This document shows positions 165 through 18,139 of a stretch of DNA of 31,922 nucleotides, one piece after another. The stretch is taken from assembly GCA_035547175.1 (NCBI GenBank), contig DASZVK010000097.1:1-31922 (forward strand), given 5' to 3'. The translations under genes and the position numbers were made by a program. The notes under the pieces are model-generated. The model was not told the DNA's origin. It ran no database searches and saw nothing but the letters and a program-made list of their open reading frames with translations. This DNA comes from Solirubrobacteraceae bacterium. GTDB taxonomy: Bacteria > Actinomycetota > Thermoleophilia > Solirubrobacterales > Solirubrobacteraceae. Within the stretch, counting starts at the first letter, position 1; the number at the start of each line of letters is the position of its first letter.

Positions 165-192
165 TTGTCGTCCATCACCGACCCGCTATACG
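165..192 (+). promoter_or_regulatory. Promoter/operator P1 (TTGTCG-N16-TATACG), copy 1 of the shared cluster motif
   Basis: TTGTCGTCCATCACCGACCCGCTATACG, upstream of the GGAGGA RBS and GTG 219; aligns without gaps to 2929 and 13960. Confidence 0.6.
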
Positions 193-218
193 CGGTCGAT
201 CCGTCGATAGGAGGAGAC

Positions 219-1328
219 GTGGCCCTCAGGTTCGGTACCTACACGGAGATCCAGTGCCCGCCCGGCGGCGACCACGCCAAGCTGATCCACGACGCGCTCG
301 AGGTCGGCGTCGCCGCCGACCGGCTCGGATACGGCGTCTACTGCTGCGTCGAGCACCCGTGGTTCGAGCAGTTCTCGATCAGCACCGCGCCGCTGGCGCT
401 GTTCGCGACGCTGGCCCAGCGGACCAGGGACATCCGCTTCCGCGCTCTCTGCCACACGCTGCCGCTGCACAACCCGTTCGTCCTCGCCGGCGAGCTGGCG
501 CTCGCCGACATCCTGCTCGACGGGCGCTTCGACGTCGGCATCGGCCGCGGCCACGCGTGGCTGCAGGATCCGGCGAACATCGCCCTGGAGGAGAGCATCG
601 AGCGCTTCCCCGAGTGCGTCGACATCCTGCTGGCGGCCTGGACGAACGAGCGCTTCTCCTACGACGGCAAGCACTACAAGGCGCATGACCTCGCGGTCGT
701 GCCGCGGCCGCTGCAGAAGCCCCACCCGCCGATCTGGCAGGTCGGCACGAGCGCCAAGTGGGTGCCGCGCGCGGTCGAGAACGGCTGGGGGATCGCGCTC
801 GGCGGCCCGGCCCCGAACGTCGCCTTCGAGGAGGCGATCGCCCAGTACCACGCCGCCTGCGAGGCGGCCGGCAAGCCCTCGAACTTCGCCTACATCAAGG
901 CGGTCAACCTCGACGAGGACCACGACAGGGCCGTCGAGGAGGGGCGCGTGCCGCTGAAGGGCTTCATCGACTTCAACGTCTCGCCGATGGACTCGCTGGA
1001 CCGCAGCCCCGAGGGCCGCCAGCGCCTGATCGACGCCGGCTACGGCTTCTACGCCGCCGACGACTTCCCCAACACCCGCAACCTCTCCTACGAGCAGCTG
1101 CTCGACCACGAGATCGTCTACGCGGGCAGCCCGGAGCGCGTCGCCCAGCAGCTGATCGACCTCTGGGACCGCTTCCGGTTCGACGAGTTCTGCCTGATCT
1201 GCCACTACGGCGGCGTCGGGCTCGAGCAGTCGCTCAAGACCCAGGAGCTGTTCGCCACCAAGGTCAGGCCGCTCATGGAGCAGGCCGCCGAGAAGGCGTC
1301 CCGGAAGAGCTCGGTGGCCGCCCGCTGA
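219..1328 (+). CDS. LLM-class (luciferase-like) flavin-dependent oxidoreductase/monooxygenase, 369 aa
   Basis: RFGTY start, VEH motif, HTLPLHNPFVLAGELALADILLDGRFDVGIGRG, PRPLQKPHPPIW, GSPERV, FATKVRP; GGAGGA RBS before GTG 219 (ORF-track start at 165 lies in the promoter). Confidence 0.9.
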   Translation: MALRFGTYTEIQCPPGGDHAKLIHDALEVGVAADRLGYGVYCCVEHPWFEQFSISTAPLALFATLAQRTRDIRFRALCHTLPLHNPFVLAGELALADILLDGRFDVGIGRGHAWLQDPANIALEESIERFPECVDILLAAWTNERFSYDGKHYKAHDLAVVPRPLQKPHPPIWQVGTSAKWVPRAVENGWGIALGGPAPNVAFEEAIAQYHAACEAAGKPSNFAYIKAVNLDEDHDRAVEEGRVPLKGFIDFNVSPMDSLDRSPEGRQRLIDAGYGFYAADDFPNTRNLSYEQLLDHEIVYAGSPERVAQQLIDLWDRFRFDEFCLICHYGGVGLEQSLKTQELFATKVRPLMEQAAEKASRKSSVAAR

Positions 1329-1354
1329 GCGCGCGATCGGACCGGGAGCGCGCC

Positions 1355-2902
1355 ATGGCCCAGCACGATGCGATCGTCGTCGGCTCCGGCGTCAACGGCC
1401 TCGCCTGCGCGGCGCTGCTGGCCAAGGCGGGCTGGGACGTCTGCGTGCTCGAGCGCAACGACTGGCTCGGCGGTGCGATCCGCACCGCCGAGATCACGCA
1501 GCCGGGCTTCGCGCACGACGTCTTCAGCGCCTGGCACCCGCTGTGGGTCGGCGGGCCCGCGCACCCGCAGCTCGCCGCGGACCTCGCGCGCCACGGCCTC
1601 GAGTACCGCAACACCGACCTGCCGAGCGCGACCGCCTTCCCGGACGGCGACAGCGCCTTCCTGCTGCGCGGCGCCGAGGAGAACGCGCGCGAGCTGGGCC
1701 CCGAGTGGCACGACGCGCTCGCGCGCTTCCTGCCCAACGCCGACCTCGCCTTCGGCGTGCTGGGCACCGAGCTGTGGTCGCGCGCCGGCGCGGCGCTCGC
1801 CTGGCGGGCGATCCGCCGGCTGGGCCGCGAGGGCGCGCGCGACTTCGCCGGCGAGCTGCTCGTCTCCGCACGCGACTGGCTGGAGACGACGTTCGCCTCG
1901 CCGAAGGCGCACGGGCTGCTCGCGCCCTGGGTCCTGCACACCGGGCTGGGCCCGGACGCCGCCGCCTCGGGCTACATGGCGCAGGTGATCGCCGTCGCGA
2001 TCCAGGACGGCGGCCTGCCGATCCCCGTCGGCGGCGGAGCCCGGCTCGCCGACGCGCTCGTCGCCTACGTGCGCGAGCAGGGCGGGACGTGCCGGACGCG
2101 GGCCGACGTCGTCGGCGTCTTCTCCGGCGGCGTGCGGCTCGCCGACGGCGAGGTCGTCGCGGCGCGCCGGGCGGTCGTCTGCAACGTCACCCCGACGGCG
2201 CTCTACGGCGGCCTGCTGGAGGGCGCGCCGGCGGCGCCGACGCAGCGGCCGTTCCGCTACGGGCGCGCCGAGATGCAGATCCACTTCGCGCTCTCCGAGC
2301 CGCCGCGCTGGGCGGGCGACGAGCGCCTCGGCCGCACGGCGATCGTGCACCTCACGCCCGGCCTCGACGGCGTCTCGCGCGCGGTCAACGAGGCCGACCG
2401 CGGCCTGCTGCCGGCCGAGGCGACGATCGTCGTCGGCCAGCCGCTGACGATCGACCCCTCGCGGGCGCCCGACGGCAAGGGGATCCTCTGGATCCAGCTG
2501 CAGGAGCTGCCACGGCACGTCAAGGGCGACGCCGCGGGCGAGATCGACGCCGGCGACGGCGCCTGGACGGAGGACCTGCGCGAGCGCTACGCCGACCGCA
2601 TCCAGGCGCGCCTCGCGCGCCACGTCCCGAACCTGGAGCCCTCGATCCTGCGGCGCGTCGCGCTCTCGCCCGCCGACCTCGAGGCCGCCAACGTCAACCT
2701 CGTGGGAGGCGATCCCTACGGCGGCTCGCTGGCGCTCGACCAGAGCTTCCTCTGGCGCGCCCCGCACCGCACGCCGGCGCCCGGCGTCTGGCACGTCGGC
2801 GCCTCGACCCACCCGGGCCCCGGCCTCGGCGGCGGGTCGGGCGCGCTCGTCGCCGAGCAGCTCCTGCGCGGCTCGCCGCTGACGCGCCTGCTGCGCCGTT
2901 GA
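1355..2902 (+). CDS. Phytoene dehydrogenase-like NAD(P)/FAD-dependent oxidoreductase, 515 aa
   Basis: Rossmann start HDAIVVGSGVNGLACAALLAKAGWDVCVLERNDWLGGA; C-terminal GASTHPGPGLGGGSG; SPADLEAANVNLVGGDPYGG; ATG 1355 after GGGAG. Confidence 0.88.
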   Translation: MAQHDAIVVGSGVNGLACAALLAKAGWDVCVLERNDWLGGAIRTAEITQPGFAHDVFSAWHPLWVGGPAHPQLAADLARHGLEYRNTDLPSATAFPDGDSAFLLRGAEENARELGPEWHDALARFLPNADLAFGVLGTELWSRAGAALAWRAIRRLGREGARDFAGELLVSARDWLETTFASPKAHGLLAPWVLHTGLGPDAAASGYMAQVIAVAIQDGGLPIPVGGGARLADALVAYVREQGGTCRTRADVVGVFSGGVRLADGEVVAARRAVVCNVTPTALYGGLLEGAPAAPTQRPFRYGRAEMQIHFALSEPPRWAGDERLGRTAIVHLTPGLDGVSRAVNEADRGLLPAEATIVVGQPLTIDPSRAPDGKGILWIQLQELPRHVKGDAAGEIDAGDGAWTEDLRERYADRIQARLARHVPNLEPSILRRVALSPADLEAANVNLVGGDPYGGSLALDQSFLWRAPHRTPAPGVWHVGASTHPGPGLGGGSGALVAEQLLRGSPLTRLLRR

Positions 2903-2928
2903 GCCCCGGCTCGCGATATGGCGCGTCA

Positions 2929-2958
2929 TTGACGACGATCATAATTCCGTTATACGAT
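2929..2958 (+). promoter_or_regulatory. Promoter/operator P2 (TTGACG with TATACG/TACGAT), copy 2 of the shared motif
   Basis: AT-rich intergenic TTGACGACGATCATAATTCCGTTATACGAT; -35 TTGACG with TACGAT at 18-bp spacing; also a CGTCA-T-TGACG dyad at 2924-2934. Confidence 0.7.
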
Positions 2959-2975
2959 CGCCGCGGGGGTAGGGC

Positions 2976-3866
2976 TTGACGCCGCGCATCTCGGTCTCGC
3001 AGATCTCGACATTCCGATCGTCCTTCGCCGACGACGTCCGCGACTACGCCGCGGCCGGGCTCGACGGCATCGGCATCTGGGAGATGAAGCTGCCCGACGG
3101 CGGCGACGCCGAGTCGCTCGAGCTGCTCGAGGCCAGCGGGCTCGAGCGCGCCTCGGCGGTCACGGCCGTGCCGTCGATCCTGCCGATGCCGCTGCTCGGC
3201 CCGCCCGACGACCCCGCCGAGCGCCTGCACGCCTACTGCGCGTCGCTCGAGCGCCTCGCCGCCTTCGCGCCGGCCGCCGTTGTCTGCGTGACCGGCAGCG
3301 GCGCCGGGCGCGACCCCGACGAGGCGCGCTCGATCGTCGTCGAGGGCCTGCGGACGATCGGCGCCGAGGCCCAGCGCCTCGGCCTGCGCATCGCGCTGGA
3401 GCCCTACCAGCGGATCGACGGCGAGCCGTGGTCGATCGTCTTCTCGATCCCGGAGGCGATCGAGCTGCTGCGCGACGCGGGCGACCCGCCGGCGATCGGC
3501 ATCCAGTTCGACGTCTGGCACCTGTGGAACACGCCGACGCTATTCGACGACATCGCCTCCGAGATCGGCCGCTTCGCCGGCGTCCACGTCTGCGACTACC
3601 GCGACCCGCCGCGCGCCTGGGCCGACCGCGCGCTGCCCGGCGAGGGCGTCGCCGGCGTCCCGGCGATCCTGGCGGCGCTCGACGCCGCGGGCTGGGACGG
3701 CCTCTACGACGTCGAGATCTTCTCCGACGACGGCACGTTCGGAACCGAGCTGCCCGACTCCCACTGGGCCGCGCCGGCGCTCGAGACGCTGGCCCGCGCC
3801 CGCGATGCAGTGCGCCGGAGCCTTTCGCCGGCTCTAAACCAACCAACCAAGGACGAGGTGACATGA
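2976..3866 (+). CDS. Sugar phosphate isomerase/epimerase (xylose-isomerase-like TIM barrel, IolE-like), 296 aa
   Basis: Metal-ligand pattern LRIALEP...QFDVWH...HVCD...DVEIFS; LPGEG motif; TTG start. Confidence 0.8.
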   Translation: MTPRISVSQISTFRSSFADDVRDYAAAGLDGIGIWEMKLPDGGDAESLELLEASGLERASAVTAVPSILPMPLLGPPDDPAERLHAYCASLERLAAFAPAAVVCVTGSGAGRDPDEARSIVVEGLRTIGAEAQRLGLRIALEPYQRIDGEPWSIVFSIPEAIELLRDAGDPPAIGIQFDVWHLWNTPTLFDDIASEIGRFAGVHVCDYRDPPRAWADRALPGEGVAGVPAILAALDAAGWDGLYDVEIFSDDGTFGTELPDSHWAAPALETLARARDAVRRSLSPALNQPTKDEVT

Positions 3867-5053
3867 GGAGAGGACGCAGGAAGAGCGCCGCCGCGGTGCT
3901 CGCGATCGCGGCGATCGGCGCCGTCGGCGCCGTCGCGGCGACGAGCAGCAGCGCTGCGTCGACGCCGATCACGATCGGATGGGCGTACGACGCCACCGGG
4001 TCGATGGCGCCGTTCGACATGCCGGCGCTCGCCGCGGCGCAGCTGCGGGTCAAGCAGATCAACGCCAAGGGCGGCGTCAGCGGCCATCCGCTGAAGATCG
4101 CCACGTGCAAGACGCAGGGCAACAAGCCGGCGGTGGCCAAGGCGTGCGCGCTGAAGCTGATCAGCGGCGGCGCCAAGGTCGTCTTCTCGACGTGCGACGT
4201 CGACCTCGGCGCCCCCGTCGTGCAGGAGGCGATCAACCGCGGCATCCTCGCGGTCTCGCCGTGCATCGGCACCGACCAGATGGGCCCCAAGCGCTTCGGC
4301 AAGAAGGGCGCGCTGGCGTTCAGCTACGGCAACGTCGCCCAGGACGAGGGCTCGGCCATGGCCGACTTCGCGTGGAGCAAGGGCTGGAAGACGGCCGCGC
4401 TCGCGACCGACGGCGTGATCGTCTACTTCAAGGACGTCGTCGCCGCGTTCAAGGCCCGCTTCCAGCAGCTCGGCGGCAAGATCGCCGACGAGGAGACCTA
4501 CCACTCGCTCGGCGGCCACGACGTCAACAACACGATCAGCCGCCTGCAGGGCGTCAAGGCCGACGTGATCGTGACGGCGACGGCGGGCGCGTTCGGCGCG
4601 CTCTCGACGCTCGTCTCGGGCCTGCGCAGCGCCGGCGACAACACCCCGATCCTCAACTCGTGGGCGGGCGACGGCACGTACTGGCTGCCCAAGAGCCCGG
4701 CGGTGACCAACTACTGGTACGTCACGTTCGCGTCGGTCTTCGGCGACGACCCCAACCCGACGGTCAAGGCGATGGCCAAGCAGATCAAGGCGGCGACCGG
4801 CGGCTTCGTCACCGGCCCGGCGGCGATCGACGGCGTCGCGACCGCGATCCGCAGGGCGCACGGCTCGACCGACGGCGCCAAGCTGGCGTCGATCATGCAG
4901 TCCTTCAAGGACGTGTCGACGCTCTCCGGCGAGGTGAGCTTCTCGTCGAAGTGGCATACGGTGTTCGGACGCCAGTACCGGGTGATGAGCATCAACGACA
5001 ACAAGGCGAAGTTCGTCAAGCTCATCAGGGCCAAGGTCGTCCCGACGATCTGA
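3863..5053 (+). CDS. ABC transporter substrate-binding protein, LivK/Peripla_BP_6 type, 396 aa
   Basis: Basic-hydrophobic signal peptide, ITIGWAYDATG, INAKGGVSG; ATGA overlap with upstream stop; followed by LIV ATPases and permeases. Confidence 0.88.
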   Translation: MRRGRRKSAAAVLAIAAIGAVGAVAATSSSAASTPITIGWAYDATGSMAPFDMPALAAAQLRVKQINAKGGVSGHPLKIATCKTQGNKPAVAKACALKLISGGAKVVFSTCDVDLGAPVVQEAINRGILAVSPCIGTDQMGPKRFGKKGALAFSYGNVAQDEGSAMADFAWSKGWKTAALATDGVIVYFKDVVAAFKARFQQLGGKIADEETYHSLGGHDVNNTISRLQGVKADVIVTATAGAFGALSTLVSGLRSAGDNTPILNSWAGDGTYWLPKSPAVTNYWYVTFASVFGDDPNPTVKAMAKQIKAATGGFVTGPAAIDGVATAIRRAHGSTDGAKLASIMQSFKDVSTLSGEVSFSSKWHTVFGRQYRVMSINDNKAKFVKLIRAKVVPTI

Positions 5054-5054
5054 G

Positions 5055-5825
5055 TTGACGGCGCTCGCCTCAGCCGACGCGCAGCGGACGCCCGGGGAGA
5101 TCCTCCGGGCGTCCGCCGTGTCGCGCTCGTTCGACGGCGTGCAGGCGCTGCGCGGCGTCGACCTGGAGCTGGGGCGGGGCCACGTCGTCGGCCTGATCGG
5201 CCCCAACGGGGCCGGCAAGTCCACGCTCGTCAACGTGCTCAGCGGCTTCGACCGCCCCGACGAGGGCAGCGTCGCGCTCGGCGACCAGGACCTGACGAGC
5301 TGGCCACCCCACCGGCGCGGCCGCCACGGCCTCGCCCGCACCTTCCAGCACAGCCACGGGTTCCGCGCGCTGTCGGTGCGCGAGAACGTCGAGGTCTCGG
5401 CGCTCGGCGTCGGCGCCGGCCCGCGCGAGGCGGCGCGGCGCGCGAGCGCGCTGCTGGCCCGGCTCGGCCTCGACCGCTACGCCGACGCGCCCGCCGCCGC
5501 GCTGCCCCAGGGCGACGAGCGCCGCCTCGGCGTCGCCCGCGCGCTCGCCACCGAGCCGCGCTTCGTGCTGCTCGACGAGCCCGCCGCCGGGCTGCCCGAG
5601 GCCGAGGTCCCGGACTTCGCCGCGCTGGTCCGCTCGATCGCCGGCGAGCACGGGGCCGGCGTGCTGCTGATCGACCACAACATGGCGCTGATCATGGAGA
5701 CCTGCGACCACATCGTCGTGCTCGATCATGGGCAGGTGCTGGCCGGCGGCTCCCCCGAGCAGATCCGCTCCAACCTCGACGTCGCGGCCGCCTACCTCGG
5801 CGAGTCGCCGGTGCACGAGGCATGA
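5055..5825 (+). CDS. ABC transporter ATP-binding protein (LivG-like)
   Basis: Walker A GPNGAGKST, RTFQ, Walker B VLLDEPAAG, IDHNM; signature degenerate (LPQGD). Confidence 0.92.
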   Translation: MTALASADAQRTPGEILRASAVSRSFDGVQALRGVDLELGRGHVVGLIGPNGAGKSTLVNVLSGFDRPDEGSVALGDQDLTSWPPHRRGRHGLARTFQHSHGFRALSVRENVEVSALGVGAGPREAARRASALLARLGLDRYADAPAAALPQGDERRLGVARALATEPRFVLLDEPAAGLPEAEVPDFAALVRSIAGEHGAGVLLIDHNMALIMETCDHIVVLDHGQVLAGGSPEQIRSNLDVAAAYLGESPVHEA

Positions 5826-6523
5826 GCCTGCGGGTCGAGGGGCTGCGCGTGCGCTACGGCGGCGTCGAGGCCGTCCGCGAGCTGTCGCTGTCGGTGGCGC
5901 CGGGCGAGATCGTCTCGCTCGTCGGGCCCAACGGCGCCGGCAAGTCCTCGACGCTGCACGCGATCATGGGCCTCGCCCCGGCGAGCGGCAGCGTGCGCGT
6001 CGGCGAGCGCGAGCTGATCGGCGCGCAGCCCGAGGACATCGCCCGCGCCGGCGTGGCGCTCGTGCCCGAGAGCCGGCGCATCTTCGCCGAGCTGACCGTC
6101 GAGGAGAACCTGCGGCTGGGCCTCGCGGCGCGGCGCGCCAGGGGCGGCGAGCTCGAGCTGCTGGACTCGATCGTCGAGCTCTTCCCGATCGTCGGCCGGT
6201 TCCGCGCCCGCCACGCCGGCGCGCTCTCCGGCGGCCAGCAGCAGCAACTCGCGATCGCGCGCGCGCTCGCGGCCGAGCCCGACGTGATCCTGCTCGACGA
6301 GCCCTCGCTGGGCCTCGCGCCGCTGATCGTCGACGCGGTCTTCGACGCGCTGGCCGCGATCCGCGACCGCGGCCTCGCCGTGCTGCTCGTCGAGCAGCGC
6401 GCGCAGCGCGCCGTGGCCGCGGCGAGCCGCAGCCACGTCCTGGCCGGCGGCGTCGTGCGCGCGCAGCTGGGCCCGCAGGACGCGGGCGACCTCGACCGCC
6501 TCGTGGGGAGCTACCTGTCGTGA
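5822..6523 (+). CDS. ABC transporter ATP-binding protein (LivF-like)
   Basis: GPNGAGKSS, LTVEENL, LSGGQQQQLAIARAL, ILLDEPSLGLAP, LLVEQ. Confidence 0.93.
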   Translation: MSLRVEGLRVRYGGVEAVRELSLSVAPGEIVSLVGPNGAGKSSTLHAIMGLAPASGSVRVGERELIGAQPEDIARAGVALVPESRRIFAELTVEENLRLGLAARRARGGELELLDSIVELFPIVGRFRARHAGALSGGQQQQLAIARALAAEPDVILLDEPSLGLAPLIVDAVFDALAAIRDRGLAVLLVEQRAQRAVAAASRSHVLAGGVVRAQLGPQDAGDLDRLVGSYLS

Positions 6524-7410
6524 GCTTCACCTGGCAGACGCTCGCCGACGGCCTCTCGCTCGGCGCGATCTACGCGCTGATGGCGGTCGGCATCGGCCTC
6601 GTCTTCGGCGTGCTGCGGCTGGTCAACTTCGCCTACGGCCAGCTCGTCATGGCCGGGGCGTTCGCCCTGGCGATGGCCTCCCAGTGGGGCTGGCCGGTGT
6701 GGGCCGGGATCGTCCTCTGCTTCGCCGTGGTGCTCGTGCTGTCGGTGCTCATGGAGCGGCTCGTCTTCCGGCCGCTGCGCGGTCACGCGCCGGCGGTGAT
6801 GCTCGTCGCGACGTTCGCGGTCGCCTTCCTGCTGGAGAGCATCGCGCTGCTGTGGTTCGGCTCGCTGGGCAAGACCGCGGCGTCGCTGGCGACGCTCAAC
6901 CAGCCGTGGACGATCCTCGGCGTCGAGATCCGCAGGATCGCGATCGTCGCGATCCTCGTCGCCGCGGCCGCGCTGGTCGGCCTGCGGCTGCTGATCGACC
7001 GCACCTCGATCGGCCTGCACATGCGCGCCGCGTCGATGGACTTCTCGACCGCGCGGATGCTCGGCGTGCGCGCCAACCGCGTGATCTTCTTCGCGGTGCT
7101 GCTGTCCGGCGTGCTCGCCGCGATCGTCGCCGTGATGCTGACCGTGCAGACGCCGCTGGTGACGCCGGACTTCGCGCTCAACGACACGATCGTCGTGCTC
7201 GCCGGCGTCGTCGTCGGCGGGCTGAACCGGATCGTCCCGGCCACGCTCGGCGGCTTCCTGATCGGGTTCGTCAGCGGCCTGCTCGGCGGGGCGCTGCCGA
7301 CCGACCAGAGCCAGTACCTGCCGACGTTCGTGTTCGCCGCCGTGATCCTCGTGCTGTTGGTCCGCCCGCGCGGGCTGTTCGACCTCTCCCGCACCGTGGA
7401 GCGCGTGTGA
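6520..7410 (+). CDS. Branched-chain amino acid type ABC permease (LivH-like), 296 aa
   Basis: GLSLGAIYALMAVGIGLVFGVLRLVNFAYG, GLHMRAAS, ARMLGV, VVVGGL; GTGA overlap. Confidence 0.92.
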   Translation: MSFTWQTLADGLSLGAIYALMAVGIGLVFGVLRLVNFAYGQLVMAGAFALAMASQWGWPVWAGIVLCFAVVLVLSVLMERLVFRPLRGHAPAVMLVATFAVAFLLESIALLWFGSLGKTAASLATLNQPWTILGVEIRRIAIVAILVAAAALVGLRLLIDRTSIGLHMRAASMDFSTARMLGVRANRVIFFAVLLSGVLAAIVAVMLTVQTPLVTPDFALNDTIVVLAGVVVGGLNRIVPATLGGFLIGFVSGLLGGALPTDQSQYLPTFVFAAVILVLLVRPRGLFDLSRTVERV

Positions 7411-8468
7411 GGCGCGGCGCGGAGCTGAGCGGGCTCGCCCTGCCGCTGGCGCTGGTCGCCGCCACGGCGCTGCTCGGCGCGCTCGTCTCGCAGTCCTCGC
7501 AGACGTACTTCACCGACGCGCTGGTCAACGTCGCGATCGTCACCGCGCTGTACGTGTTCGTCGGCAACTCCGGGGTGCTGTCGTTCGGCCACATCAGCTT
7601 CGTCGCGCTGGGCGCGTGGACGGCGGGCGTGCTGTCGGTGCCGGTCGCCGAGAAGCCGGCGACGATGCCCGGCCTCGCGCACTTCCTCGCCGCCACGCAC
7701 GTCGCCAACGTCCCGTCGCTCGCGCTCGCGGCGCTCGTCGGCGGCGTCGTCGCGCTGGTCGTCGGCTTCCCGCTGACGCGCCTGTCCGGGCTGTCCGCCG
7801 GCATCGCCACGTTCGCGGTGCTGGAGATCACCCACAACCTGCTCCAGTACGAGACGGCGCTCGGCCCCGGGACCAACACCTTCTCCTCGGTGCCGGAGAC
7901 GACCGGGATGCTGCAGGGCGCGATCGGCGCCGGGATCTGCGTCGTCGCCGCGTTCCTGTACTCGCGCAGCCGCTGGGGCCGCCTGCTGCGCGCTACGCGC
8001 GAGGACGCCGCGGCCGCCCGCGCGATCGGCGCCTCGATCCACGTCCAGCGCCTGATCGCCTTCACGCTCTCGGGCGCGCTCGCCGGCCTCGCCGGCGGCC
8101 TCTACATCCACCTGCTGCCGCTCAGCATCGACTCGGTCTTCCTCGACCTGACGTTCATCACGCTCGCGATGCTGGTCGTCGGCGGGTCGGGCAGCCTGCT
8201 GGGCGCCGTCGTCGGCGCGCTCCTGGTCAGCGCGGTCGACTCGTGGTTCTCGCTGGCCGAGAACGGCACCTCGCTGTTCGGCTGGCACGTCGACGTCCCC
8301 TCGGGCACGACCCAGATCATCGTCGGGACGGCGATGGCGGCGGTCCTGATCTTCCGTCCCTCGGGCATCATCGGCCCAGGGGCGATCCGCCTGCCCGGCC
8401 TGCGCAGGGCCGGGTCGGCCGCCGACGGGCAACCGACTCCCACCGAGGGGCATCCAACTCCCAACTAA
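7407..8468 (+). CDS. Branched-chain amino acid type ABC permease (LivM-like), 353 aa
   Basis: GNSGVLSFGHISF, SRWGRLLRATRED, MLVVGGSGSLLG, RPSGIIG; GTGA overlap. Confidence 0.9.
   Translation: MRRGAELSGLALPLALVAATALLGALVSQSSQTYFTDALVNVAIVTALYVFVGNSGVLSFGHISFVALGAWTAGVLSVPVAEKPATMPGLAHFLAATHVANVPSLALAALVGGVVALVVGFPLTRLSGLSAGIATFAVLEITHNLLQYETALGPGTNTFSSVPETTGMLQGAIGAGICVVAAFLYSRSRWGRLLRATREDAAAARAIGASIHVQRLIAFTLSGALAGLAGGLYIHLLPLSIDSVFLDLTFITLAMLVVGGSGSLLGAVVGALLVSAVDSWFSLAENGTSLFGWHVDVPSGTTQIIVGTAMAAVLIFRPSGIIGPGAIRLPGLRRAGSAADGQPTPTEGHPTPN
8427..8467 (+). repeat. Imperfect 21-bp-period tandem repeat in the LivM-like C-terminal tail
   Basis: GGGCAACCGACTCCCACCGA (8427) vs GGGCATCCAACTCCCAACTA (8448), 16/20 identical; encodes GQPTPTE/GHPTPN. 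Confidence 0.5.
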
Positions 8469-8481
8469 GACAAGGAGCACC

Positions 8482-9282
8482 ATGTCGATCGAGTCCAGCA
8501 ACGCGACCACGGCCCTCCTGGCGGGCCTCGCCGACGGGTCCGTGCGCGTCGTCGACCTCACGCAGCCCCTGAGCGAGAGCACGCCGGTGCTGATCCTGCC
8601 CGAGCCGTTCGCGAACACGCCGAAGCTCTCGCGCCGCACGCTCAGCCGCTACGACGAGGCCGGGCCGGCGTGGGCCTGGGACGTGCTCGAGATCGGCGAG
8701 CACCACGGCACGCACTTCGACGCGCCGATCCACTGGATCAGCGGCCGCGACGGCAAGGACGTGGCGTCGGTCGACCCGAGCCGCCTCGTCGGCCCCGCGA
8801 TCGTGATCGACAAGTCCGCGCAGGCCGCCGCCGACCCCGGCTACCTGCTGACGGTCGCCGACCTCGAGGCCTTCGAGGACGAGCACGGGCGCATCCCCGA
8901 TGGCGCCTGGGTGCTGTTCCGCTGCGGCTGGGACGCGCGCGCCCACGACGAGGCGGCGTTCCTCAACGCCGGCCCGGACGGGCCGGTCACGCCGGGGCCC
9001 GACGTCGAGGCCTCCCGGTGGCTGGGCACCGAGCGCGGGATCTCGGGCTTCGGCGTCGAGACCGTCGGCATCGACGCCGGCGCCGCCGGCGGCTTCGACC
9101 CCGTCTACCCGCTGCACAACTACCTGCTCGGCAACGACCGCTACGGCCTCACGCAGCTCGCCAACCTCGGTGAGCTGCCGCCGACCGGCGCGGTGATCGT
9201 CGTGGCGCCGCTGAAGCTCGTCGACGGCACCGGCGCCCCGACCCGCGCGCTGGCGCTGGTCCCGGCGGAGAGGCAGGGCTGA
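8482..9282 (+). CDS. Cyclase-family metal-dependent amidohydrolase (isatin hydrolase / kynurenine formamidase fold), 266 aa
   Basis: HxGTHxDxPxH motif (EHHGTHFDAPIHW), VVDLTQPL, GVETVGID, GTGAPTRALA; AAGGAG RBS. Confidence 0.9.
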   Translation: MSIESSNATTALLAGLADGSVRVVDLTQPLSESTPVLILPEPFANTPKLSRRTLSRYDEAGPAWAWDVLEIGEHHGTHFDAPIHWISGRDGKDVASVDPSRLVGPAIVIDKSAQAAADPGYLLTVADLEAFEDEHGRIPDGAWVLFRCGWDARAHDEAAFLNAGPDGPVTPGPDVEASRWLGTERGISGFGVETVGIDAGAAGGFDPVYPLHNYLLGNDRYGLTQLANLGELPPTGAVIVVAPLKLVDGTGAPTRALALVPAERQG

Positions 9283-9285
9283 GCG

Positions 9286-11454
9286 ATGGCCGAGCGGTCG
9301 TTCGCCAACGAGGTCCAGGTGCTGCGCGAGGGCGCCGGGACGACGCTGCACGTCGAGGGCATCCTCGCCGTCACCAAGGCGCTGCTGCAGTCCGGCGTCG
9401 CCTACGTCGGCGGCTACCAGGGCGCGCCGATCTCGCACCTGATGGACGTGCTCGGCGACGCGCAGGAGATCCTCGCCGAGCTCGGCGTGTACTTCGAGAA
9501 CAGCGCGTCGGAGGCGACGGCCTCGGCGATGCTCGCCGCGTCGGTGCACTATCCGCTGCGCGGCGCGGTGACCTACAAGTCGACGGTCGGCCTCAACGTC
9601 GCCTCCGACGCGCTGGCCAACCTCTCCAGCGGCGGCGTCACCGGCGGCGCGCTGGTGATCCTCGGCGAGGACTACGGCGAGGGGTCGAGCATCATGCAGG
9701 AGCGCGCGCACGCGTTCGCGATGAAGTCGCAGATGTGGCTGCTGGACCCGCGCGTCGACGTGCCGACGATCGTGCAGGCCGTCGAGACGGGCTTCGAGCT
9801 CTCCGAGGCGTCGCACACGCCGGTGATGCTCGACCTGCGCCTGCGCTCCTGCCACGTGCACGGCAGCTTCGTCGCCAAGGACAACGTGCGCCCGCCGATG
9901 ACGGTCAAGCAGGCGATGGAGAACCCGGTCCGCGCCGTCGACCGCATCGTGCTGCCGCCGGCGAGCTTCCTGCACGAGAAGGAGAAGATCGCCGAGCGCT
10001 GGCCCGCGGCCGTGCGCTTCATCTCCGAGCGCGGGCTCAACGAGGTCTTCGCCGACGGCGCGGCCGACGTCGGGATCATCACCCAGGGCGGGCTCTACAA
10101 CACGCTCAACCGCTCGCTCGAGCTGCTCGGCTGCTCGGATCCCTATGGCCGCACGAAGCTGCCGCTGTACGTGATGAACGTGACCTATCCCGTCGTCGAG
10201 GAGGAGGTCGTCGCGTTCTGTGCCGGCAAGCGCGCGGTGCTGCTGCTCGAGGAGGGCCAGCCCGACTACATCGAGCAGAGCCTCAGCGCGATCCTGCGCC
10301 GCGCCGGCCTCGACACGGCGCTGCACGGCAAGGACATGCTGACGATGGCCGGCGAGTACACGACGACCGTCATCACGCGCGGGCTGTCGGCGTTCCTGCG
10401 GCGCCACCTGCCCGACGCGATCGAGCACGAGCCGGCGCTGCTGCGCGACGCGGACGACCCGGCGAGCCCGTTCGCGCCGCGCGTCGCGCCGCAGGTCGTC
10501 GGCGCGCGCGCCCCCGGCCTGTGCACCGGCTGCCCCGAGCGGCCGATCTTCAGCGGGCTCAAGCTCGCCGAGCGCGAGACCGGCAGGCACCACGTCAGCG
10601 CCGACATCGGCTGCCACCTGTTCGCGATCAACGCGCCGTTCGAGATCGGCGCGACGACGATGGGCTACGGCCTCGGCTCGGCCGGGGCGGCGGCGCTGTC
10701 GGCCAAGGACGCCGACCGGCCGAGCATCGCGATCATGGGCGACGGCGGCTTCTGGCACAACGGCCTGACCAGCGGCGTCGGCAACGCCGTCTTCAACGAG
10801 AGCCCACAGGTCGTCACGATCGTCGACAACAACTACGCCGCGGCGACCGGCGGCCAGGACCTGCTGTCCTCGAAGGCGCCGCTGCCGACCCGCTCGACGC
10901 AGCACCCGATCGAGAAGGCCGTGCGCGGCGTCGGCGTCGAGTGGGCGCGGACGATCGACGACACCTACGACGTCGGCGCGGTGCGCGACGCCTGGCTCGA
11001 CGCGCTGACCGCCGAGCAGCCGGGGCCGAAGGTGCTCGTCATGCAGAGCGAGTGCCAGCTCAACCGCCAGCGGCGCGTCCGCCCCGAGACGGCCAAGGCG
11101 CTCAAGCAGGGCAAGCGCGTCGTGCGCGAGCGCTTCGGCGTCGACGCCGAGACGTGCACCGGCGACCACGCCTGCATCCGCATCTCGGGCTGCCCGTCGC
11201 TGTCGATCAAGGCCAACCCCGACCCGATGCGCACCGACCCGGTGGCGACGGTCCTGTCGAGCTGCGTCGGCTGCGGCGTCTGCGGCGCCAACGCGCACGC
11301 GGCCGTGCTGTGCCCGTCGTTCTACCGGACCGACGTCGTCCACAACCCGACGCTGAGGGACCGGCTGCTCGCGCGCGTGCGCGCGTGGTGGATCCGCGTC
11401 GCGTCTCGCGGGATCGAGCGTCGCGCCGCGCGCTTCGAGCCGGTCGCGACCTGA
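9286..11454 (+). CDS. iorA: Indolepyruvate:ferredoxin oxidoreductase alpha subunit-like (TPP, Fe-S), 722 aa
   Basis: GYQGAP, KSTVGLNVASD, GLCTGCPER, DIGCH, TPP motif GDGG...DN...TGGQ, C-terminal ferredoxin-type Cys clusters (CTGDHAC..GCP; CVGCGVC..LCP). Confidence 0.9.
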   Translation: MAERSFANEVQVLREGAGTTLHVEGILAVTKALLQSGVAYVGGYQGAPISHLMDVLGDAQEILAELGVYFENSASEATASAMLAASVHYPLRGAVTYKSTVGLNVASDALANLSSGGVTGGALVILGEDYGEGSSIMQERAHAFAMKSQMWLLDPRVDVPTIVQAVETGFELSEASHTPVMLDLRLRSCHVHGSFVAKDNVRPPMTVKQAMENPVRAVDRIVLPPASFLHEKEKIAERWPAAVRFISERGLNEVFADGAADVGIITQGGLYNTLNRSLELLGCSDPYGRTKLPLYVMNVTYPVVEEEVVAFCAGKRAVLLLEEGQPDYIEQSLSAILRRAGLDTALHGKDMLTMAGEYTTTVITRGLSAFLRRHLPDAIEHEPALLRDADDPASPFAPRVAPQVVGARAPGLCTGCPERPIFSGLKLAERETGRHHVSADIGCHLFAINAPFEIGATTMGYGLGSAGAAALSAKDADRPSIAIMGDGGFWHNGLTSGVGNAVFNESPQVVTIVDNNYAAATGGQDLLSSKAPLPTRSTQHPIEKAVRGVGVEWARTIDDTYDVGAVRDAWLDALTAEQPGPKVLVMQSECQLNRQRRVRPETAKALKQGKRVVRERFGVDAETCTGDHACIRISGCPSLSIKANPDPMRTDPVATVLSSCVGCGVCGANAHAAVLCPSFYRTDVVHNPTLRDRLLARVRAWWIRVASRGIERRAARFEPVAT

Positions 11455-13118
11455 TGTCGAGCTGGTCCGAGGGGCGCCGGCCGATCACGCTCGCCATCCT
11501 CGCCCTCGGCGGCGAGGGCGGCGGCGTGCTGGCCGACTGGATCGTCGCGCTCGCCGAGCACGGCGGCTGGACGGCGCAGAACACGTCGGTGGCGGGCGTC
11601 GCCCAGCGCACCGGCGCCACCGTCTACTACGTCGAGATGCTGCCGCCGCCGGGCGAGGGCGACCCGCGGCCCGCCGCCCTCGGCGAGGGCCGCGCCGCGC
11701 CGGTGATGAGCATCTTCCCCACCCCCGGCGAGGTCGACGTCGTCATCGCCTCCGAGCTGATGGAGTCCGGGCGCGCGATCCAGCGCGGCTTCGCGACGCC
11801 CGACCGCACGACGCTGATCGCCTCGACCAGCCGCGTCTACTCGATCGACGAGAAGATGGCGCTCGGCGACGGCCGCGTCGACGGCGCCGAGCTGCTGGCG
11901 GCCGCCGCGCGCTCCTCCAAGCGGCTCGTCGCCGCCGACTTCGCCAGGCTCGCCGAGCAGGCGGGCACGGTCATCAGCGCGTCGCTGTTCGGCGCGCTGG
12001 CCGGCTCGGGCGCGCTGCCCTTCGCGCGCGAGCAGTTCGAGGAGCGCATCCGCGCCTTCGGCAAGGGCGTCGAGGCGTCGCTGGCGGGCTTCGCCGCCGG
12101 CTACGAGGCGGCGACCGCCGAGCCGCCGCGGCCCGCCGCCGAGCCGGCCACCTCCGCGGCGCTGCCGATCACCGCCTGGCCGCCGGGCGACGCGCCCGCG
12201 CCGCTCGACGACGAGGAGGCGGCCAAGGAGGCCGAGGAGCGGCGCCGCAACGAGATCGCCGCCGCCGACCCGGCGTCGCTCGTCGGCCCGGACCTGCGCG
12301 AGCTCGCGCAGCGCGTCGCCGAGCTGCCCGCGGCGTCGCGCTCGATGGCGCTGCACGGCATCGTCCGCACCGCCGTCTACCAGGACGTCGCCTACGCCGA
12401 GCGCTACCTCGAGCGCCTCGGCCGCTTCGCCGCGGTCGAGCCCGACCCCGGCGGGGCCGCCGCGCTGACGACCGAGGCGGCGCGCCACGTCGCGCTGTGG
12501 ATGGCCTACCAGGACACGATCCACGTCGCGCTGCAGAAGACCCGCCAGCAGCGCATGGAGCGCATCCGCGACGAGGCCCGGGCGCGTCCGGGCGATCTCG
12601 TCGAGGTGCGCGAGTTCCTGCATCCGCAGATCGACGAGATCACCGACACGATGCCCTCGCGGCTCGGCGCGCGGCTGCGCGAGGCGCGCTGGTTCGGCGG
12701 CCTCGTCCACCGGCTCACGCACAAGGGGATGATCCTCAACACCAGCTCGGTGTGGGGCTACACGCTGCTGAGCACGCTGGCGCGCATGCGGCCGCTGCGA
12801 CCGCGCTCGCTGCGCTTCGTGCGCGAGCAGGCGGCGATCGAGGCCTGGCTCGAGCAGGCGCTGGCGGCCGCCGAGGCCGACCCCGAGCTCGCCCGCGAGA
12901 TCGTCGAGTGCCAGCGCGTGCTCAAGGGCTACGGGGCGACGCACGCGCACGGCTCGGAGAGCTTCGCGAAGCTGATGGCGGCGGCCCGCTCGCTGGTCGG
13001 CGAGCCCGGCGCCGCCGGTCGCCTGGCGGCGCTGCGCGACGCGGCGCTGGCCGACGAGGACGGCAGGGCCCTGGACGCGGCGCTCGCCGCGCCGGCGCAG
13101 ACGGGCGAGGGCGGCTAG
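11454..13118 (+). CDS. iorB: Indolepyruvate oxidoreductase beta subunit family protein, long form with C-terminal extension, 554 aa
   Basis: ALGGEGGGVLADW, GVAQRTGAT, VDVVIASELME; C-terminal domain with CQRVLKGYG; TGATG overlap with iorA. Confidence 0.88.
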   Translation: MSSWSEGRRPITLAILALGGEGGGVLADWIVALAEHGGWTAQNTSVAGVAQRTGATVYYVEMLPPPGEGDPRPAALGEGRAAPVMSIFPTPGEVDVVIASELMESGRAIQRGFATPDRTTLIASTSRVYSIDEKMALGDGRVDGAELLAAAARSSKRLVAADFARLAEQAGTVISASLFGALAGSGALPFAREQFEERIRAFGKGVEASLAGFAAGYEAATAEPPRPAAEPATSAALPITAWPPGDAPAPLDDEEAAKEAEERRRNEIAAADPASLVGPDLRELAQRVAELPAASRSMALHGIVRTAVYQDVAYAERYLERLGRFAAVEPDPGGAAALTTEAARHVALWMAYQDTIHVALQKTRQQRMERIRDEARARPGDLVEVREFLHPQIDEITDTMPSRLGARLREARWFGGLVHRLTHKGMILNTSSVWGYTLLSTLARMRPLRPRSLRFVREQAAIEAWLEQALAAAEADPELAREIVECQRVLKGYGATHAHGSESFAKLMAAARSLVGEPGAAGRLAALRDAALADEDGRALDAALAAPAQTGEGG

Positions 13119-13948
13119 TGGCCAACGGCAACGGCTTCCCCCCGCGCGCCCTGCTGCTGACCGTGCTGGGCGCCTACGTGCGGCGGCTCGACGAGTGGAT
13201 CTCGATCGCCGGGCTGATCCGGCTGATGGACGAGCTCGGCGTCGACGAGCAGTCGGTGCGCTCGGCCGTCTCGCGCTTCAAGCGCCGCGGGATCGTCGTC
13301 CCCGAGCGCCGCGGCGGGGCGGCCGGCTACCGGATGAGCGAGTCGGGGCACCGGCTGCTGGAGGAGGGCGACGCGCGGATCTACGGTCGGCCGCGGGCGG
13401 CGCTGCTCGACGACGGCTGGGTCCTCGCCGTCTTCTCGGTGCCGGACTCCAAGCGCGCCGACCGCCACGCGCTGCGCTCGCTGCTGGCCTGGCTGGGCTA
13501 CGGGAACCTGTCCTCGGCGGTCTGGATCGCCCCGTGGCACGTCGAGGCCGAGACGCGCGAGGCGCTCGTCCGCCGCGGCCTGGCCGGCTACGTGCAGATG
13601 TTCCGCGCCCACTACGAGGCGTTCGGCACGCCCGCCGACCTCGTCGCGCAGTCGTGGGACCTCGCCGAGCTGCGAGCCCGCTACGTGGCCTTCCAGCGGG
13701 CGGCCGCGCCGATGGCGAGGCGCTGGCGCTCGCAGACGCCCGGCGGCCGCGACGCGTTCGTCGACCACGTGCTCGTGCTGTCGGAGTGGCGGCCGCTGCC
13801 GTTCCTCGACGCGGGCCTGCCGGTCGAGGCGCTGCCGCGCGACTGGCCCGGCCCGCGCGCGTGGGAGACGTTCCACGGGCTGGTCGAGCGGCTCGAGGGC
13901 CCGGCGTTCGACTACGTCCGCGAGGCGATCGGCGATGCGGCCAAATAG
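13118..13948 (+). CDS. paaX: PaaX-family transcriptional regulator, 276 aa
   Basis: LLLTVLGAY, SVRSAVSR wHTH, WVLAVFSVP, LGYGNL...VWIAP, WDLAEL, DAGLPVEALPRDWPG; TAGTG overlap. Confidence 0.9.
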   Translation: MANGNGFPPRALLLTVLGAYVRRLDEWISIAGLIRLMDELGVDEQSVRSAVSRFKRRGIVVPERRGGAAGYRMSESGHRLLEEGDARIYGRPRAALLDDGWVLAVFSVPDSKRADRHALRSLLAWLGYGNLSSAVWIAPWHVEAETREALVRRGLAGYVQMFRAHYEAFGTPADLVAQSWDLAELRARYVAFQRAAAPMARRWRSQTPGGRDAFVDHVLVLSEWRPLPFLDAGLPVEALPRDWPGPRAWETFHGLVERLEGPAFDYVREAIGDAAK

Positions 13949-13959
13949 GTAGTGCTGTG

Positions 13960-13987
13960 TTGACGACCGTCACAGAGACGCTATGTT
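13960..13987 (+). promoter_or_regulatory. Promoter/operator P3 (TTGACG-N16-TATGTT), copy 3 of the shared motif
   Basis: TTGACGACCGTCACAGAGACGCTATGTT, containing a perfect dyad TGACG-AC-CGTCA over the -35. Confidence 0.7.
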
Positions 13988-14015: not shown

Positions 14016-16379
14016 ATGAGGATCGCGGTGTCCGGCGGAGGACCCGCCGGCCTGTACTTCGCGATCCTCATGAAGCGCTCCCAGCCGGCGCACGAGATCA
14101 CCGTCTGGGAGCGCAACGCGCCCGACGACGCGTTCGGCTTCGGCGTCGTCTTCTCCGACGAGACGCTGACCGTCTTCGAGCACGCCGACCCGGAGAGCTA
14201 CGCGGCGATCACCGAGCAGTTCGCGCGCTGGACGGACATCGACATCCACCTGCGCGGCCAGGTGATCACCTCCGGCGGCCACGGCTTCGCCGCGCTCGGC
14301 CGGCGAGCGCTGCTGGGCATCCTCCAGCGTCGCGCGCTCGAGCTCGGGGTGACGATCCACTTCAACGCCGAGACGCCGCCCTACGAGGAGCTCGCCTCGC
14401 ACGACCTCGTGCTCGCCGCCGACGGCCTCAACAGCGCCCTGCGCCACCGCTTCGCCGAGACGTTCCGGCCGTCGCTGGACCCGCGCCGCTGCCGCTACAT
14501 GTGGCTCGGCACGGACCTCGTCTTCGACTCCTTCAAGTTCTTCGTCAAGGAGACCGAGCACGGCATCGTCCAGGTCCACGGCTACCCCTACGACGCGACG
14601 ATGAGCACGTTCATCGTCGAGGCCGGCGAGCGCTTCTGGCAGGGCGCCGGCCTGGACGCGATCGCGACCGAGGGCCTCGGCCCGGGCGAGAGCGACGAGG
14701 CGAGCATCGCCTTCTGCGCCGAGCTGTTCGCCGACGAGCTCGGAGGCCACGCGGTCGTGTCCAACAACTCCAAGTGGCTGCGCTTCACGACGGTCCGCAA
14801 CGAGCGCTGGCGCCACGAGAACGTCGTCCTGATCGGCGACGCCGCGCACACCGCGCACTTCTCGATCGGCTCAGGGACGAAGCTGGCGATGGAGGACGCG
14901 GTCGCGCTGGCGTGGGCCTTCCACGAGAACGGCGACGACCTCGACGCCGCCGTCGCCGCCTACGAGGCCGAGCGGCGCCCGATCGTGGAGAGCACCCAGC
15001 GCGCCGCCCAGGCCAGCCTCGAGTGGTTCGAGGGCATCGACCGCTACGCCGGCCAGGACGCGCTGCAGCTCGCCTTCAACCTGCTCACGCGCAGCCGCCG
15101 GATCACGCACGCGGAGCTGACGCTGCGCGACGCGCCGTTCGTGCGCCGCGTCGAGGAGGAGGCGCTCGACGCGCGGGTGGGCGGGCACGAGGTCGACGGC
15201 CGCATGCCGCCGCCGATGTTCACGCCGCTGCGCCTGCGCGACGTCGAGCTGGCCAACCGCGTCGTCGTCTCGCCGATGGACATGTACTCGGCCGTCGACG
15301 GCGTTCCCGGCGACTTCCACCTCGTCCACCTGGGCAGCCGCGGCCAGGGCGGCGCCGGCCTGGTCATGACCGAGATGGTCTGCGTCTCGGCGCGCGGGCG
15401 GATCACCCCCGGCTGCACCGGCCTCTACGCGCCCGAGCACCTGCCCGCGTGGAGGCGGATCGTCGACTACGTCCACGCCCACGGCGGCGCGCGGTTCGGC
15501 TGCCAGATCGGCCACTCGGGGCGCAAGGGCTCGACGAAGCGGATGTGGGAGGGCATCGACCAGCCGCTCGAGGACGGCAACTGGCCGCTGATCGCGCCCT
15601 CGCCGCTGCCCTACTACGCCCACAGCCAGGTCCCGCGCGAGATGACGCGGGCGGACATGGACGAGGTCCGCGACCAGTTCGTCGCCTCGGCGCGGATGGC
15701 GGCCGAGGCGGGCTTCGACCTGCTCGAGGTCCACGCCGGCCACGGCTACCTGCTGTCGTCGTTCCTCTCGCCGCTGACCAACCGCCGCACGGACGAGTAC
15801 GGCGGCAGCCTCGAGAATCGCGCCCGCTTCGTGCTCGAGGTGTTCGACGCCTGCCGCGCCGTCTGGCCCGAGCATCTGCCGATGTCGATGCGGATCTCGG
15901 CGACCGACTGGGCGCCGGGCGGCTTCGACGGCGACGACGCGGTCGCCTTCGCGCGCATGCTCAAGCAGCACGGCTGCGACCTCGTCGACGTGTCCACGGG
16001 CCAGGTCGTCCACGACCAGCGGCCCGCCTTGGGGCGCAGCTTCCAGACGCCGTTCGCCGACCGGATCCGCAACGAGGTCGGCATCCCGGTGATCGCGGTC
16101 GGCGCGATCTCGTCCTACGACGACGTCAACACGATCATCCTCGCCGGCCGCGCCGACCTGTGCGCGCTCGGCCGCCCGCACCTCTACGACCCGCATTGGA
16201 CGCTGCACGCGGCGGCCGAGCAGGAGTGGCCCCACGTCGCCTGGATCTCGCCCTACCAGGCCGGCCGTCGCCGGCCGGTGACGGGCAAGGACGCGGCCGC
16301 CAAGCCGGCCCCGCGCACGTTCGCCGGGCCCGCCGCCGAGCCGCAGCCGACGCTGTCCCGCCCGCCGATCGAAGCCTAG
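14016..16379 (+). CDS. Bifunctional 2-aminobenzoyl-CoA monooxygenase/reductase or salicylyl-CoA 5-hydroxylase/oxidoreductase (FAD monooxygenase fused to Old Yellow Enzyme domain), about 787 aa
   Basis: [45 protein letters not shown]; OYE half [50 protein letters not shown]; alternative ATGs at 13983/13998/14004. Confidence 0.9.
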
Positions 16380-16389
16380 GAGCGCCCCC

Positions 16390-16809
16390 TTGCCCGACCA
16401 CGAGATCGTCAACCCGCCCTCGCTGCCCAAGCCGTCGGGCTTCAGCCACGGCGTGCGCGCCGGCGACGTCGTCCACCTCGCCGGCCAGACGGCGCTGGAC
16501 GCGGACATGAGGATCGTCGGCGAGACGATCGTCGAGCAGTTCCGCCAGGCGCTGGGCAACGTGCTGACGACGCTGCTCGAGGCCGGCGGCGAGCCGCGGG
16601 ACCTCGTCAGCCTGACGATCTACCTCACCGACGTCGCCGACTACCAGCGCCACGGCCGCGAGATCGGCGCCGTCTACCGCGAGCTGATCGGCGACTGGTA
16701 CCCGGCGATGGCCGGGATCGGCGTCACCGGGCTCTGGCAGCCCGAGGCGCTGATCGAGATCCAGGGCGTCGCCGTGATCCGCCAGCCCAGCCCCACCGAT
16801 CCCGCCTGA
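16390..16809 (+). CDS. RidA/YjgF family protein, 139 aa
   Basis: PSGFSHG, LAGQT, PAM..., LIEIQGVA; TAGGAG RBS before TTG. Confidence 0.88.
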   Translation: MPDHEIVNPPSLPKPSGFSHGVRAGDVVHLAGQTALDADMRIVGETIVEQFRQALGNVLTTLLEAGGEPRDLVSLTIYLTDVADYQRHGREIGAVYRELIGDWYPAMAGIGVTGLWQPEALIEIQGVAVIRQPSPTDPA

Positions 16810-16835
16810 ACCTTCCGACCACTGGAGGAGCCGTC

Positions 16836-18130: not shown

Positions 18131-18139
18131 GAGGCGACG

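Follow-up and report, generated by a model that had tools for sequence, protein, structure and literature searches.

A MeqR2-like palindrome in the predicted promoters of three catabolic gene units of a Solirubrobacteraceae bacterium

Described repressors of aromatic-CoA catabolism

PaaX of Escherichia coli and Pseudomonas responds to phenylacetyl-coenzyme A (CoA) and controls the paa, pac, and sty genes. The repressor and RNA polymerase compete for catabolic promoters and for that of the repressor gene itself; an aryl-CoA intermediate releases the repressor, whose operator is TGATTC-N27-GAATCA (PMC9493321). PaaR is an acyl-CoA-responsive repressor of the TetR type that serves aromatic-CoA catabolic operons in Actinobacteria, among others (PMC9493321). 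The DNA analysed here, referred to as the window, is the entire contig DASZVK010000097.1 (C97; 31,922 nucleotides, or 31.9 kb) from the metagenome-assembled genome (MAG) of a Solirubrobacteraceae bacterium (GCA_035547175.1), which comprises 2.7 Mb in 412 contigs with 74% GC. It contains three copies of a 25-bp motif, each upstream of a string of catabolic genes. Each copy is probably a sigma-A promoter with a built-in operator of the local repressor, a PaaX-family protein of the MeqR type encoded at 13118-13948. The operator core, TGACG-NN-CGTCA, corresponds to the reported operator of MeqR2.

The window regulator is of the same protein family as PaaX of E. coli and Pseudomonas, has the same domain architecture, and would follow the same regulatory logic. 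It differs from E. coli PaaX in its operator and its recognition helix, falls under the cut-off of the PaaX equivalog, and is not accompanied by paa genes. No match to TGATTC-N20-30-GAATCA occurs in the window, and none of the paa catabolic genes (paaABCDE, paaK, and others) was found among the 37 window proteins scanned with Pfam. PaaR, from Corynebacterium, Thermus, and Burkholderia, acts in phenylacetate catabolism and differs from the window system in both protein family and operator. There is no TetR gene within the three window units.

On plasmid pAL1 of Arthrobacter sp. Rue61a, the catabolism of quinaldine and anthranilate is controlled by two PaaX-type repressors, MeqR2 and its paralog MeqR1. 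In 2013, Niewerth, Parschat, Rauschenberg, Ravoo, and Fetzner reportedly found that MeqR2 binds the palindrome 5'-TGACGNNCGTcA-3'. Its reported positions are -35 to -24 in the two upper-pathway promoters, +4 to +15 in the lower-pathway promoter, and a place downstream of the meqR2 promoter. Anthraniloyl-CoA is said to be the specific effector, and the binding seen in vitro was reportedly abolished when the palindrome was disrupted. The pAL1 sequence (NC_009453.1) was checked directly. It has an exact TGACGACCGTCA, identical to the 12-mer of motif copy 3 of the window, 200 bp 5' of a PaaX-type gene that adjoins a monooxygenase gene (L084:19754). Two more exact palindromes, TGACGNNCGTCA, are located between the divergent upper-pathway operons, and a copy with a single mismatch, TTACGATCGTCA, lies between RidA and the lower-pathway operon, which comprises FAH, cupin, thioesterase, AMP ligase, and monooxygenase genes. 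The palindromes thus stand at four promoters, in agreement with the reported MeqR2 sites. The initial annotation of the window had proposed a new operator that does not resemble the E. coli PaaX site. The second part is borne out by the window scan. The novelty is not supported, because the operator is of the MeqR2 type and the pAL1 promoters carry the same palindrome. According to the Rue61a genome paper, two PaaX-related plasmid regulators take part in the control of quinaldine degradation.

The window system resembles that of MeqR2 and MeqR1 in having several promoters with one operator type, and in having the regulator gene close to a gene of the 2-aminobenzoyl-CoA monooxygenase/reductase type and to RidA, cupin, and thioesterase genes. 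The window regulator is 39% identical to either protein and contains the three PaaX domains and the conserved recognition helix. As reported for the upper-pathway promoters of pAL1, the window palindrome runs from the predicted -35 box into the spacer. In contrast, the window cluster is not carried by an Arthrobacter plasmid. It is part of a 74% GC soil MAG and is regarded as chromosomal, since the remainder of the contig holds housekeeping genes (principal sigma factor, ClpP, FolE2). It lacks quinaldine genes and an anthranilate-CoA ligase, and its regulon comprises a cyclase-family hydrolase, an IorAB-like 2-oxoacid:ferredoxin oxidoreductase, an ATP-binding cassette (ABC) transporter, and oxidoreductases of the luciferase-like monooxygenase (LLM) and FAD types. 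Two of the three window sites have degenerate right half-sites, and the regulator gene is the last of a catabolic operon.

The motif copies, their relatives, and the local regulator

The three 25-mers are all on the plus strand. Copy 1, TTGTCGTCCATCACCGACCCGCTAT, is at 165-189 upstream of unit 1; copy 2, TTGACGACGATCATAATTCCGTTAT, is at 2929-2953 upstream of unit 2; and copy 3, TTGACGACCGTCACAGAGACGCTAT, is at 13960-13984, where 67 nt separate the regulator gene from unit 3. In each unit the motif ends 22-32 nt 5' of the first start codon (219, 2976, and 13983 or 14016). A consensus scan of the window with up to three mismatches finds these copies and nothing else (0.02 matches expected from shuffles), and with at most one mismatch allowed, the 2.7 Mb of the complete assembly contain no further match either. 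The presence of the motif before all three units, as initially annotated, is therefore confirmed.

Three parts can be distinguished in the motif. TTGACG forms the -35 box, a palindrome of 12 bp with the form TGACG-NN-CGTCA starts inside this box, and CGYTAT makes up the 3' part. The core of copy 3 (13961-13972), TGACGACCGTCA, is a perfect TGACG-AC-CGTCA palindrome. The core of copy 1 (166-177), TGTCGTCCATCA, has two mismatches to TGACGNNCGTCA, and that of copy 2 (2930-2941), TGACGACGATCA, also has two, both in the right half. A scan with the sigma-70 consensus predicts promoters at copy 2 (TTGACG, 18 nt, TACGAT; 2929-2958) and copy 3 (TTGACG, 16 nt, TATGTT; 13960-13987). These are two of the three sigma-70-like calls in 19.7 kb, where 0.3 were expected, and with these predicted hexamers the dyad would begin in the -35 box and extend over the first third of the spacer. 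The sites of other genomes are flanked on one or both sides by CG(N)GATA or CGATAC boxes at a fixed distance from the core. Actinobacterial -10 regions have the form G-N-TA-NNN-T. CGYTAT was considered as a second operator half and rejected, since its offset from the core moves by 2 nt with the spacer length and fits G-N-TA-NNN-T; it is best read as the G-N-TA start of a putative -10 region. Of the earlier description, the dyad is thus real and the motif goes beyond a plain -35/-10 pair by virtue of its operator-like dyad, but the inclusion of CGYTAT in the operator is not upheld.

Of 17 exact occurrences of the 12-mer in the genome, copy 3 is the only one in non-coding DNA. The 12-bp core alone was rejected as a classifier, because cores with two mismatches are too common; the significance of copies 1 and 2 lies, for the same reason, in the full pattern of 25-28 nt and its position, and not in the dyad alone. 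A 28-nt matrix, covering 1 nt, the core, and 15 nt downstream, was trained only on the sites of other genomes and softened with 15% background. Among 5.38 million positions of this genome, it ranks copy 3 1st (29.7 bits), copy 2 2nd (25.7 bits), and copy 1 7th (18.0 bits), the last being the fifth distinct site. Two other high-scoring positions, C70:8065 and C387:1245, were rejected as further sites, as both are in coding sequence; the exact 12-mer at C387:1245 belongs to a VTVVT stretch. The best intergenic match outside the window is TTGACGGTCGTCCCGCGGGGGTTATGCT, on the minus strand of C85:1696-1723 (18.4 bits). Its core, GGACGACCGTCA, has one mismatch and lies about 15 nt 5' of an EVE-like open reading frame (ORF), on a 2-kb contig with unrelated-looking genes. 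It may be a fourth site or a chance match.

Related loci were collected solely by similarity to the regulator protein in a scan of species-representative genomes. The 80 loci come from Streptomyces, Nocardioidaceae, Tetrasphaera, Angustibacter, Amycolatopsis, Nakamurella, and Catenulispora, and their regulators are 41-54% identical to that of the window. In nearly all of them, the neighbouring genes include RidA and one for a monooxygenase homologous to that of unit 3 (59-65% identity). The 1.49 Mb of these loci contain 139 occurrences of TGAC-N4-GTCA, against about 10 expected, so the palindrome is conserved in related upstream regions. The sites lie in the promoter regions of operons with AMP ligase and PaaX, with acyl-CoA dehydrogenase and RidA, and with enoyl-CoA hydratase and monooxygenase. 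About 50 Streptomyces loci have two sites per cluster, TTGACTGTCGTCAC..CGATACGC and GTGACTGTCGTCAC..CGCGATA (L020:8018 and 14119). The former separates the acyl-CoA dehydrogenase-RidA operon from the AMP-ligase-PaaX operon, and the latter is 5' of the enoyl-CoA hydratase-monooxygenase operon. In these sites one half-site is TGACT instead of TGACG. The first has -10-like boxes on both flanks, which suggests back-to-back promoters with one common operator. A regulon scan with TGACKNNMGTCA-N6-CG was given up as too unspecific, with 15-22 matches per 10-Mb Streptomyces genome. The close relatives of the MAG were unfit for phylogenetic footprinting: a PaaX-like gene is present in only three of the 41 genomes searched, namely this genome and two others, and the PaaX-like proteins of those two are distant outgroups.

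The closest regulators in a protein search are 64-72% identical, and one of them, the closest homolog, is from a Solirubrobacteraceae MAG. These relatives, among them L166, L167, and L168, repeat the IorA-IorB-PaaX module, often with the cyclase and monooxygenase set nearby. The most syntenic locus, L168, has a regulator of 65% identity and the order cyclase, IorA-IorB-PaaX-monooxygenase. It carries TTGACGACCGCAAC 5' of IorA (L168:6155), TTGACGCCCGTCAC..CGATAT in the gap between PaaX and monooxygenase (L168:10915), which is the positional ortholog of copy 3, and a weak site, CAGACGACGATCAC..GGTATACG, before the RidA operon (L168:15144), which closely resembles copy 2. In another locus, the RidA and monooxygenase operons are separated by a region with TTGACGACGATGAC..CGTTATA (L165:14753), whose left half and -10 region are nearly identical to those of copy 2, and a third has TTGACGATCGACAC 5' of the IorA gene of an IorA-IorB-PaaX module (L166:6052). 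The right half-sites in these relatives are as degenerate as those of copies 1 and 2. The subclade therefore shows a left half, doubling as the -35 box, that is strongly kept and a right half that is often degenerate, which speaks for copies 1 and 2 being real sites, if perhaps weaker ones. At L166:15861-16080, 5' of an enoyl-CoA hydratase-RidA-acyl-CoA dehydrogenase-monooxygenase operon, there are about five tandem units of ~45 bp (..CGCCTGACCGCTCACCGCTGCAGTCCTCCTCCGCCGAGTACGAG..) and no matrix site.

Operons without the regulator differ in this respect. On 80 soil-metagenome contigs, XylI-ABC operons are 70-80% identical to unit 2 but are not followed by genes for the cyclase, IorAB, PaaX, or the monooxygenase. 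None of the 80 has a matrix site 5' of XylI, and the motif therefore travels with the regulator and not with the transporter operon. Most of these contigs have another strongly conserved palindrome, CTTGATCAGATGTCAAAC, about 40-60 nt 5' of the XylI homolog (L087-L157; e.g., L091:8880-8960), which adjoins a divergently transcribed gene and is absent from the window. It looks like a separate operator that has been replaced in the window by copy 2, and copy 2 itself looks like a lineage-specific recruitment.

The regulator at 13118-13948 comprises all three PaaX Pfam domains (PF07848, PF20803, and PF08223). Its identity to both PaaX-type proteins of pAL1 is 39% (E = 8e-56 and 2e-57). It scores 142.7 bits against the PaaX equivalog TIGR02277, under the cut-off of 264.55, and matches E. 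coli PaaX (8A39) with E = 2e-16 only. In a quick maximum-likelihood tree it forms a deep branch within the clade of the pAL1 proteins and the monooxygenase-linked regulators, and PaaX-like proteins from genomes of the same genus and family are outgroups. A putative recognition helix, VRS(A/S)VSR(L/F)K(R/K)RG, is shared by the window regulator and hardly varies among 83 clade members, and the residues R48, R53, K55, R57, and G58 are found in 100% of them. The helix is different in the outgroup PaaX-like proteins and in E. coli PaaX (VRTALFRLNKEG). This conservation fits a common DNA specificity distinct from TGATTC-N27-GAATCA. The GTG start of the regulator gene overlaps the IorB stop codon (TAGTG, 13116-13120), so transcription from the copy 2 promoter probably takes in the regulator gene along with the rest of unit 2, and the regulator is probably autoregulated. 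The overlap also suggests that translation of the regulator is coupled to that of the catabolic operon.

Proposed mechanism and rival explanations

In the proposed mechanism, a dimer of the regulator would bind the palindrome and block RNA polymerase at the -35 region. An aroyl-CoA from the pathway, most likely anthraniloyl-CoA to judge from the gene context, would release it. As its gene is the last of unit 2, the repressor would also limit its own synthesis. The binding itself, the repression, the nature of the effector, and the positions of the transcription starts are predictions. Copy 3 can be taken as the canonical site with high confidence, while copies 1 and 2, with their degenerate right half-sites, are each somewhat likely to be weaker operators. 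The earlier proposal that the local PaaX ties the three units into one regulon is plausible and is supported by the same palindrome beside orthologous regulators.

Several observations weigh against this reading. Copy 1 was not called by the sigma-70 scan; it has a weakened -35 box, TTGTCG, and no good TAnnnT box. Cores with two mismatches number 3647 in the genome and 46 in the window, where 28 were expected. The matrix also rewards promoter features, and the ranks of copies 1 and 2 therefore do not separate an operator from a similar promoter. The sequence is present in DNA runs from soil and rhizosphere metagenomes only, and no RNA runs are among the matches. As to the effector, the NCBI name of the unit 3 monooxygenase family refers to salicylyl-CoA, and neither an AMP-forming ligase nor an anthranilate-CoA ligase was found by Pfam among the window proteins.

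The frequency of such cores, two mismatches being present in copies 1 and 2 alike, the mixture of promoter and operator signal in the matrix ranks, and the reported loss of MeqR2 binding from a disrupted palindrome speak for copy 3 as the only working operator. In that case, copies 1 and 2 would be ordinary promoters that share the -35 and -10 elements, perhaps by common descent, and units 1 and 2 would be controlled otherwise. This is unlikely, as all three copies retain the outer-right TCA (about 0.006 per promoter by base composition), and the sites at operator position in relatives (L165:14753, L166:6052, L168:6155, and L168:15144) are equally degenerate on the right. Moreover, copy 2 would drive the operon that bears the regulator gene, as in relatives with a site 5' of IorA-IorB-PaaX.

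Other explanations dispense with the local repressor. It is hardly credible that the copies are three plain strong promoters, with a spacer likeness due to chance or shared ancestry, even though the motif has good -35 and -10-like elements and AT-rich promoter words are conspicuous in a 74% GC genome. The palindrome is conserved in distant Actinomycetota beside the same regulator family and recurs as the same 12-mer at pAL1 promoters. Nowhere else does the non-coding DNA of the genome contain the perfect dyad of copy 3, and orthologous operons without the regulator have no motif. Assignment of the dyad to another regulator, such as the PadR-like protein of 19661-20155 or the product of the truncated divergent ORF at 1-90, is very improbable too. 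A PadR-family gene does lie just 3' of unit 3, but loci picked solely via the PaaX-like protein nearly all carry the dyad, no second regulator family recurs in the annotated loci, and MeqR2 reportedly binds this palindrome in vitro. A promoter with a built-in operator for the MeqR-type repressor is accordingly retained as the preferred, though still provisional, reading of each copy.

Gene content of the regulon and neighbouring genes

Gene calls combined ORFs, a frame plot of GC at third codon positions (GC3), Pfam, and NCBIfam, and give three gene strings downstream of the motif copies, all on the plus strand. Unit 1 (219-2902) encodes a luciferase-like monooxygenase (219-1328) and a phytoene-desaturase-like FAD oxidoreductase (1355-2902). 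Unit 2 (2976-13948), in which adjacent genes abut or overlap, begins with a xylose-isomerase-like TIM barrel and a branched-chain-type ABC transporter (binding protein, two ATPases, and two permeases). These are followed by the cyclase-family hydrolase (PF04199; 8482-9282), the IorA-like (9286-11454) and IorB/DUF6537 (11454-13118) subunits of the 2-oxoacid:ferredoxin oxidoreductase, and the PaaX-family, MeqR-like regulator of 276 aa (13118-13948). Unit 3 extends from 13983 or 14016 to 19084. Its first gene encodes a bifunctional aroyl-CoA hydroxylase/reductase of the 2-aminobenzoyl-CoA monooxygenase/reductase type, which scores 1215 bits against NF006101 (cut-off 1078). The profile begins at residue 12, and the ATG at 14016 is the probable true start. 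The rest of the unit comprises RidA, a cupin, an acyl-CoA thioesterase II, and an F420/LLM-class oxidoreductase. The monooxygenase, RidA, cupin, and thioesterase genes recur in pAL1 at its lower-pathway operon and connect the cluster with anthranilate breakdown via CoA thioesters.

The regulatory mechanism itself is already known, and the gene content of the regulon is its more unusual aspect. The absence of a CoA ligase, the position of the cyclase and IorAB genes directly 5' of the regulator gene, and the recurrence of IorA-IorB-PaaX suggest that an aroyl-CoA is formed directly, without a ligase. The cyclase-family hydrolase (isatin hydrolase or arylformamidase-like) and the IorAB-like enzyme would convert a 2-oxoacid derived from indole/isatin or from kynurenine, e.g., isatinate, to the aroyl-CoA. 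The cyclase family includes isatin hydrolases (PMC6117287). An indole/isatin regulon is a hypothesis that agrees with the cyclase, the IorAB-like enzyme, and the lack of a CoA ligase. It is a tentative and rather doubtful suggestion that a MeqR-type repressor has been rewired to a ligase-free route to anthraniloyl-CoA, with ABC uptake and the LLM/FAD oxidoreductases recruited by newly evolved operator-promoters.

The comparison predicts, in testable form, a regulon of three promoters in an uncultured actinobacterium from soil. It also suggests that an operator first defined on a single Arthrobacter plasmid serves generally in a large clade of PaaX-like proteins of Actinomycetota, among them those of Streptomyces, Nocardioidaceae, Nakamurella, and Solirubrobacteraceae-like MAGs. 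The operator stands there beside genes of the 2-aminobenzoyl-CoA monooxygenase/reductase type, which would allow regulons to be predicted.

On the 3' side of unit 3 are a divergent SnoaL-like gene (19164-19592) and the PadR-like regulator gene (19661-20155), and the consensus scan of the window finds no motif copy before either. On the other side, a minus-strand ORF at 1-90 starts with GTG at 90, runs off the contig end, and is divergent from unit 1; the GC3 frame plot has a minus-strand coding signal at 1-150. The minus-strand sequence AGTATGCC at 151-158, 6 nt past the copy 1 core, may be the -10 box of a divergent promoter that serves this ORF. It is placed about where the plus strand has its -10 region relative to the core, and copy 1 is therefore perhaps an operator common to divergent promoters, as in the Streptomyces loci and L168. 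The latter has CATACTG at a similar distance from its core (L168:6141-6155).

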